Below, in pieces: positions 45,792-45,818 of a stretch of 64,000 bases of DNA. The notes beneath the pieces are model-generated. The model saw nothing but the letters and a program-made list of their open reading frames with translations. It did not search any database and was not told where the DNA came from. Numbering within the stretch: the stretch's first letter is position 1; every line of letters begins with the position of its first letter. The DNA comes from Escherichia coli (GTDB taxonomy: Bacteria; Pseudomonadota; Gammaproteobacteria; Enterobacterales; Enterobacteriaceae), in NCBI RefSeq assembly GCF_044324785.1, contig NZ_CP172127.1, one strand, 5' to 3'. A program made the translations under genes and the position numbers.

Positions 45792-45818
45792 AAACGCTTA
45801 CCTTTCAGGTAAGCGTTT
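45792..45818 (+). terminator. Hairpin AAACGCTTACC-TTTCA-GGTAAGCGTTT between island ORF B and uhpA
   Basis: Perfect 11-bp inverted repeat; weak T-run. Confidence 0.4.

Follow-up and report, generated by a model that had tools for sequence, protein, structure and literature searches.

An island-borne, terminator-like hairpin at the ilvN-uhpA junction of Escherichia coli that is distinct from the native ilvN-distal hairpin

Results and Discussion

An island between ilvN and uhpA

The window (the whole stretch of 64,000 nucleotides of Escherichia coli DNA that was analysed) carries ilvB and ilvN, then an island with two long open reading frames, and then uhpA, followed by uhpB and uhpC. The features referred to below are as follows.

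40520-42208: ilvB
42212-42502, + strand: ilvN, acetolactate synthase small subunit (Pfam ACT_AHAS_ss, E = 1.9e-30; RefSeq annotation of homologous loci)
42503-45865, + strand: the island, 3,363 bp, replacing the 10 nt CCGCTCAAGG of the empty site (junctions from the empty-site alignment)
42518-42548, + strand: T0a, weak hairpin CGCTCG...TGAGCG (dG -9.8 kcal/mol), then A and T5
42536-42553, + strand: first copy of the 18-mer ATGAGCGATTTTTGATAG, upstream of ORF A
42576-42609, + strand: T0b, strong hairpin AAATTGTGCC...GGCACAATTT (dG -17.6 kcal/mol) without a proper T-run
42765-44054, + strand: ORF A, paralogue of ORF B; the frame opens with GTG at 42753 and the likely start is ATG 42765
44071-44095, + strand: T1, hairpin 16 nt past the ORF A stop with a poor T-run (TATTCTTAA), dG -13.0 kcal/mol
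44136-44153, + strand: second copy of the 18-mer ATGAGCGATTTTTGATAG, an exact duplicate, upstream of ORF B
44269-45765, + strand: ORF B, hypervariable; the family consensus suggests a start at ATG 44332
45792-45818, + strand: T2, the hairpin under study, with a perfect 12-bp stem and a TTC loop
45818-45829, + strand: "anti-T3" segment TTGACGATAAGC, complementary to the 5' arm and loop of T3 (45881-45892)
45831-45843, + strand: T3-like fragment CAACATCATTAAG, resembling the native CAACATCGCGCTTATCGTTAAG with a deletion between two ATC repeats
45866-45926, + strand: retained ancestral ilvN-uhpA spacer, holding the invariant CTTGAAC (45866-45872) and the uhpA Shine-Dalgarno region
45878-45908, + strand: T3, the ancestral ilvN-distal terminator-like hairpin (45878-45902) with T6 (45903-45908)
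45927-46517, + strand: uhpA, response regulator (Pfam Response_reg and GerE; RefSeq annotation), with uhpB and uhpC next

The TAA stop codon of ilvN (42500-42502) forms the left edge of the insertion site, and the GC content of the island is about 0.33-0.39 (approximately 35%), compared with 0.52-0.62 (about 0.57) in the flanks. The island was found in 1,106 of 5,426 complete E. coli genomes, and O157:H7 (Sakai, EDL933), O55:H7 and O145:H28 are among the carriers. Of the remaining genomes, most show an empty site (about 75 bp), while some of the Nissle type carry another insert. A partial match in HS-02 was left out because of its error-ridden assembly. The island was absent from the scanned outgroups, from phages and from true plasmids, and a single "plasmid" match proved to be a 4.9-Mb chromosome record. 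No direct or inverted repeats of at least 10 bp flank the island ends, which therefore show no att-like signature, and no recombinase or integrase was detected in the island with Pfam, PADLOC and NCBIfam.

To place the junction in a wider context, species-representative genomes were scanned with a degenerate uhpA-start pattern, which yielded loci from E. albertii, E. whittamii, two cryptic Escherichia, an E. coli, Citrobacter, Kluyvera and Salmonella. The sixteen scanned loci have either a compact spacer of 72-75 bp or another gene ending right before CCGCTCAAGGCTTGAAC, and in all of them an essentially invariant GCGCTTATCGTTAAGGTAAGCGC with a T-run adjoins uhpA. Since the empty site with T3 was found across the outgroups, this arrangement is the ancestral one, into which the island was inserted.

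ORF A and ORF B share 25% identity (BLASTP, E = 6e-22), indicating that they are paralogues, and neither belongs to a Pfam, PADLOC or NCBIfam family. Their own family is tiny and restricted to E. coli: it comprises 47 clusters with identities of 42-97%, and a set of 1.84 billion proteins yielded 54 representatives, most of them fragments. A search of the PDB with the ORF A/B sequence profile gave no match. The AlphaFold model of ORF B (pLDDT 66) matched only the type III effectors EspG and VirA in Foldseek, which accounted for all of the top 26 matches with E-values down to 2.5e-7. The cargo is thus a hypervariable, E. coli-only pair of paralogues with a predicted EspG/VirA-like fold, and it is a more interesting by-product of this study than T2 itself.

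Position and structure of the hairpin T2

T2 lies on the same strand as ORF B, 26 nt past its stop codon (45763-45765) and 108 nt before the uhpA ATG (45927), in good agreement with the distances of about 25 and 110 nt given in the first-pass annotation of the window. The same annotation described a perfect inverted repeat of 11 bp; the repeat is indeed perfect, but its length is 12 bp. The 5' arm (45792-45803, AAACGCTTACCT) and the 3' arm (45807-45818, AGGTAAGCGTTT) have 12 nt each with 100% complementarity, and they enclose the 3-nt TTC loop.

The 27-mer RNA folds with a dG of -15.3 kcal/mol. In a context of 46 nt the value is -17.2 kcal/mol (z = -5.4), and none of 200 shuffled sequences folded as well. 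Only two perfect inverted repeats of at least 12 bp with a loop of 3-8 nt occur in the 64-kb window, namely T2 and the repeat at 39615-39642, and dinucleotide shuffles of the window contained 0.03 such hairpins on average. The T2 sequence is single-copy in the window even when three mismatches are allowed. With this one copy, and with a median of one place per genome, T2 does not behave as a dispersed palindromic repeat of the REP/BIME or ERIC type, and a scan of 42300-46100 against Rfam gave no match at E <= 1. Behind the 9-bp, G+C-containing core of the stem the T run comprises only four U (45816-45819) and is followed by GACG. The core is bordered by AAA and UUU, and three of the four U can pair with the upstream AAA.

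The other perfect 12-bp hairpin of the window, AAAGGGGAGCGG-GTAA-CCGCTCCCCTTT at 39615-39642, is intergenic and looks like a bidirectional intrinsic terminator.

T2 and the native ilvN-distal hairpin

It had been proposed in the first-pass annotation that T2 is the native ilvBN terminator, displaced by the island and marking the insertion junction. The ilvN-uhpA intergenic sequence of K-12 speaks against this. The K-12-type spacer reads TAA-CCGCTCAAGG-CTTGAACAACATCGCGCTTATCGTTAAGGTAAGCGCG-TATTTTTTTT-ACCCGCCAGGACAAGACC-ATG and does not contain T2, which was missing from all of the 72-75 bp spacers of K-12, E. albertii, E. whittamii, the two cryptic Escherichia, Citrobacter and Kluyvera, and likewise from the Salmonella spacers examined. 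The T2 core was seen only in island-bearing DNA. As many genomes (1,106) contain the complete 99-nt island tail with T2 as carry the island, and a 55-nt window around T2 gave the same count. Collinearity with the empty site begins at 45866 with CTTGAAC, so that T2, which ends at 45818, lies 47 nt within island-specific sequence. In addition, the orthologous native hairpin and its T-run form an element of their own at 45878-45908. T2 is a strong hairpin close to the right end of the island, with a core 18/21 identical to that of the real terminator, and could be taken for the native element, but these observations refute the displaced-terminator reading, absence of the hairpin from island-free strains being the refuting condition named in the annotation itself. 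The other part of the proposal, that the insertion took place between ilvN and its terminator, was borne out, since the island (42503-45865) lies between the ilvN stop codon and T3. The topology of the insertion is the one first inferred, but it applies to T3 rather than to T2.

The outgroup scan gave a single contig with the T2 core, L026 (JAIJJM010000287.1). This 3.9-kb contig, labelled "MAG: Collinsella sp.", carries the island, consists of E. coli island DNA and has probably been mis-binned.

The native hairpin of the K-12 type has a 10-bp stem and a GTTAA loop (dG -15.4 to -16.1 kcal/mol) and is followed by T8. T3 is conserved in four genera (Escherichia, Salmonella, Citrobacter and Kluyvera). 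In an alignment of T3 with T1, which resembles it (see below), 95% of the cells are paired and compensatory changes occur at two pairs; the covariation score was reached by none of 500 shuffles. Judged from this alignment, T3 together with T1 behaves as a conserved RNA hairpin. In all island carriers, the T3 stem has a derived A-to-T mismatch at 45897, and in the window the dG is -11.6 kcal/mol against -15.4 kcal/mol for the ancestral form. The carrier haplotype is also marked by a shorter T-run and by CCCAATC in place of AAGACC ahead of the uhpA ATG. This island-type T3 haplotype was found in 1,109 genomes, as compared with about 1,106 island carriers.

Our literature searches turned up no published mapping of the ilvN-distal terminator, and nothing usable on the uhpA promoter or on 3' ends from Term-seq. 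A synthetic-biology part named the "ilvBN terminator" has the sequence AAGACCCCCGCACCGAAAGGTCCGGGGGTTTTTTTT (PMC6723963). This is a different sequence that does not occur in the window, and the part has only the name in common with the elements described here. The ivbL leader and attenuator of the window are located upstream of ilvB, at approximately 40317-40475.

The insertion site is thereby remapped: the island lies between ilvN and a deeply conserved hairpin with a T-run that stays with uhpA, and it is the island that brought or built its own terminator-like hairpins. For annotation this means that ORF B has its own 3' hairpin and that, in approximately 20% of E. coli including O157:H7, uhpA is preceded by two serial hairpins, the second of which is weakened.

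A copy of the ancestral hairpin in the island and the probable origin of T2

Comparison of the island with the K-12 terminator pointed to T1 as its best counterpart (29/34 identical): it scored 43, where the null maximum over the island is 20 +/- 2. Against T3 of the window, T1 scored 36 (null, 14.5 +/- 2.0), a value reached by none of 500 shuffles, and T1 shows a compensatory C-G to U-A change relative to the ancestral hairpin. T1 is a clear copy of the ancestral ilvN-distal terminator hairpin, and it is visibly decaying in some island lineages.

The 18-mer ATGAGCGATTTTTGATAG, which reads M-S-D-F-stop-stop, is likewise duplicated beyond chance expectation (score 36, null 18.4 +/- 2.3; reached by 0/500 shuffles). 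Its presence before both ORFs points to a leader module that was duplicated or to a regulatory site common to both, and would be consistent with a tandem duplication of a module consisting of leader, ORF and hairpin.

The tail of the island also resembles the ancestral spacer. The two have seven 8-mers in common, compared with a mean of 0.28 in 6,311 real windows; at most 0.03% of the real windows reached this degree of sharing, and the best local score is within the top 0.2-0.4%. The anti-T3 segment also repeats part of the 5' half of T3 in inverted orientation, and the fragment at 45831-45843 is likely to be terminator-derived debris. The island tail is made largely of T3-like fragments.

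For T2 itself the evidence is less direct. Its core is 18/21 identical to that of the K-12 terminator (CGCTTA.C.TT.AGGTAAGCG), with a score that was reached by none of 2,000 shuffles, and it is the second-best site in the island in this comparison; T2, T1 and T3 are also in register when aligned by MAFFT. When a profile was made of T1 and T3, on the other hand, T2 scored only 5.5 bits, corresponding to E of about 1 over 64 kb, and the homology of T2 to T3 is therefore suggestive and no proof. The next match of this profile, at 5606-5636, is within a long ORF and is probably due to chance. Taken together, the comparisons make the descent of T2 from T3 likely, in which case T2 would be a diverged and "perfected" copy of T3. 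T2 has the orientation of the K-12 ilvN-distal hairpin (CGCGCTTATCGTTAAGGTAAGCGCG and T8) and lies in the same interval upstream of uhpA. The two differ in that T2 occupies a locus of its own, 59 nt upstream of T3, has the loop TTC instead of GTTAA, a longer perfect stem and a shorter T-run, and is absent from empty sites.

The insert of S. diarizonae at the same site contains no extra terminator copies, and the copying of the terminator is therefore specific to this island.

Conservation and likely role of T2

The conservation of T2 was assessed with a sample of 12 island haplotypes, whose overall identity to the window goes down to 80%. Among the haplotypes the ORF B alleles reach a dS of 0.70 with a dN/dS of 0.40, and the flanking genes have a dS of approximately 0.06-0.15. 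The 24 positions of the T2 stem were invariant in 12/12 haplotypes, and the variation seen, in three alleles (TTC to CTC, TTC to TTT, and loss of 1 nt), is confined to the 3-nt loop. The chance that three events would all fall in 3 of 27 positions is (3/27)^3, or about 0.001. The non-coding part of the island is, however, little diverged as a whole, with 96% mean pairwise identity as compared with 83-87% for the ORFs, and with 9% variable columns in this backbone the probability of no change at the 24 stem positions is approximately 0.09. For this reason, the invariance of the stem is not clearly above background. Note that hairpin loops can be mutational hot spots and that perfect palindromes can be kept by template switching without selection.

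Two variant junctions delimit the element on its left side. In XJ5.2, the 3' end of an unrelated ORF B gives way to the conserved sequence some 10 nt upstream of T2; in Ec-U3 (L034), the end of an IS1 abuts T2 and leaves the hairpin intact. From these junctions, T2 is the first element of the conserved right-hand backbone of the island.

We compared T2 with the features expected of an intrinsic terminator, namely a G+C-containing stem of about 5-14 bp, a loop of 3-8 nt, typically at least 5-6 U in 8 right behind the stem, and a co-oriented gene just upstream. The stem-loop is as expected, as is the location just past the co-oriented ORF B. A consensus terminator scan, which required at least 5 T in 8, did not call T2. 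In its stable stem-loop with a G+C-containing core, its location 26 nt past a co-oriented stop codon and the U residues that follow, T2 resembles the Rho-independent terminators of E. coli; it differs from them in having only four U, three of which can pair with AAA, in escaping the scan, and in that its activity is a prediction. The A-tract upstream of T2 mirrors the U-tract, as in bidirectional terminators. T1, 16 nt past the stop codon of ORF A, is an analogous gene-end hairpin.

T2 is thus an ordinary island-borne, terminator-like hairpin. Our preferred reading, to which we assign a probability of about 0.6, is that it is a part of the island and not native, that it most likely serves as the terminator or 3' stem-loop of ORF B, and that it is probably derived from T3. 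In the transcript of ORF B, T2 would then work as a modest Rho-independent terminator, as a stem-loop protecting the 3' end, or as both; it is because the U-tract is weak that we consider a modest terminator or a 3'-end stabiliser. Island transcripts would be stopped or trimmed about 45 nt before the right edge of the island, and would be kept off T3 (45878-45908) and the start region of uhpA. If T2 leaks, transcription of the island could reach uhpABC. The succession of T2 and T3 before the next gene is reminiscent of the tandem or back-up terminators at operon ends. It departs from them in that the second hairpin, T3, is older than T2, is weakened in the carriers and can be sequestered by the conserved segment between the two. 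T3, 59 nt downstream, could also make T2 redundant.

Much of the same evidence bears on the possibility that T2 is a functionless relic, that is, debris of a duplication of the terminator region at the assembly of the island, kept perfect by intrastrand template switching (quasi-palindrome correction) and by hitch-hiking with the non-coding backbone. The patchwork of T3-like fragments in both orientations in the tail speaks for this, and so does the weak U-tract; the non-coding sequence is uniformly conserved at 96% with T2 as no outlier, and the other copy, T1, is visibly decaying in some lineages. Against this, the three independent variants are all in the loop and none is in the stem, and T2 has survived both the replacement of its neighbour in XJ5.2 and the interruption by IS1 in Ec-U3. 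We regard the relic explanation as rather unlikely. T2 might instead work as DNA, being bound by a protein as a 27-bp palindrome or serving as a fixed right boundary (recombination anchor) for the exchange of hypervariable ORF B alleles, but we regard such a role as very unlikely. In its favour are the perfection of the palindrome, the position of the change from hypervariable to conserved sequence in XJ5.2, some 10 nt upstream of T2, and the coding dS of 0.4-0.7 against a non-coding divergence of 4-6%, which points to a mosaic ancestry. On the other side, the island has neither a recombinase or integrase nor flanking direct repeats, the whole tail is conserved rather than T2 alone, no similar palindrome occurs elsewhere in the window, and T2 by eye is unlike the uhpT promoter region. 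A reading of the palindrome as a UhpA box, with CCTGAA as its half-site, was likewise rejected: the half-site is a single 6-mer, and no similarity to the uhpT promoter region was evident.

A possible RNA switch and a possible uhpA promoter

The segment directly after T2 can pair with T3. The helix between 45818-45829 and 45881-45892 comprises 12 bp (one of them G.U) with -15.8 kcal/mol, compared with -11.6 kcal/mol for T3 of the window; this energy was reached by none of 2,000 shuffles and by 2.1% of the real windows. For 45785-45915 the structure of minimum free energy combines T2 with the anti-T3 helix (-33.5 kcal/mol, against -28.2 kcal/mol for T2 with T3). The two helices are thus mutually exclusive in the manner of a terminator and an antiterminator, and the pairing that excludes T3 is the thermodynamically favoured one. 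The other hallmarks of an attenuator were not found: the pairing partners are nearly invariant and give no covariation, a sensing element (leader peptide, ligand or protein site) was not identified, nor was there an Rfam match.

In an attenuator-like arrangement, transcripts that extend past T2 would carry 45818-45829 and thereby block T3, which would lead to read-through into uhpABC, and the A-to-T mismatch in T3 would favour the same outcome. The anti-T3 helix is stronger than T3 of the window, can form before the 3' arm of T3 is made, and is conserved in all variants, and the haplotype with the weakened T3 tracks the island (1,109 as against about 1,106 genomes). The complementarity is, however, an expected by-product of the inverted partial T3 copy, and the argument is purely thermodynamic, with a p of only about 0.02 against real sequence. 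With near-invariant partners and no sensing element or leader peptide identified, we consider this arrangement improbable.

The CTTGAAC and TAAGGT motifs (window 45866-45895) are 17 nt apart and invariant across the four genera, and the bases between them vary, including six variable nt between CTTGAAC and the core of the hairpin. TTGAAC-17 nt-TAAGGT may accordingly represent a weak sigma-70 promoter within the terminator, with the uhpA mRNA starting at the T-run, on the evidence of motif spacing and conservation. If so, the presence of a uhpA promoter in T3 would explain why all of the insertions are upstream of CTTGAAC, and it would also be the reason why the island gains from a stop of its own upstream. 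A fuller proposal is that the junction has been rewired at the RNA level, with T2, the anti-T3 segment and the weakened T3 forming a switch by which transcription of the EspG/VirA-like island genes either stops at T2 or runs past the disabled T3 into uhpABC, and with T3 possibly holding the uhpA promoter (TTGAAC-17-TAAGGT) as well. Such a switch, were it real, would tie the expression of horizontally acquired genes to the sensing of sugar phosphates; we regard it as quite improbable.

The left end of the island and ilvBN transcripts

With T3 displaced from ilvN, transcripts of ilvBN may enter the island, so that read-through into the island genes is possible. Both T0a and T0b lie within the first 110 nt of the island. 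T0a is a candidate stop for ilvBN transcripts at the left end, as judged from its predicted fold and the T5 behind it, and is not strictly conserved, with a stem mismatch in the ST648 locus L009. T0b was unchanged in eight island variants.

Recurrent insertion at the junction

The ilvN-uhpA junction is a recurrent insertion hot spot, and the insertions seen upstream of CTTGAAC are the present island, a DUF6708 insert of the Nissle type, and genes in Salmonella and Citrobacter. In E. coli Nissle 1917 (locus L002, 604-2000), the other insert at the site carries the DUF6708 gene on the opposite strand, and is flanked by ERIC-like inverted repeats and by a 12-bp direct repeat of the 3' end of ilvN (TTTTTTCAGTAA). 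Five loci from Salmonella and Citrobacter (L016, L018, L019, L022 and L023) have other genes between ilvN and CCGCTCAAGGCTTGAAC, and the insert of S. diarizonae has 4.5 kb with four ORFs. Repetitive elements were also observed in Citrobacter: an ERIC-like element lies within the terminator hairpin of strain MGH106, and several Citrobacter have a REP-like element in place of the T-run. In the window, an imperfect palindromic ERIC-like element of about 115 bp (49478-49590) is located between the uhpT promoter region and the uhpT ATG (49605), and locus L009 is approximately 118 bp shorter at this element.
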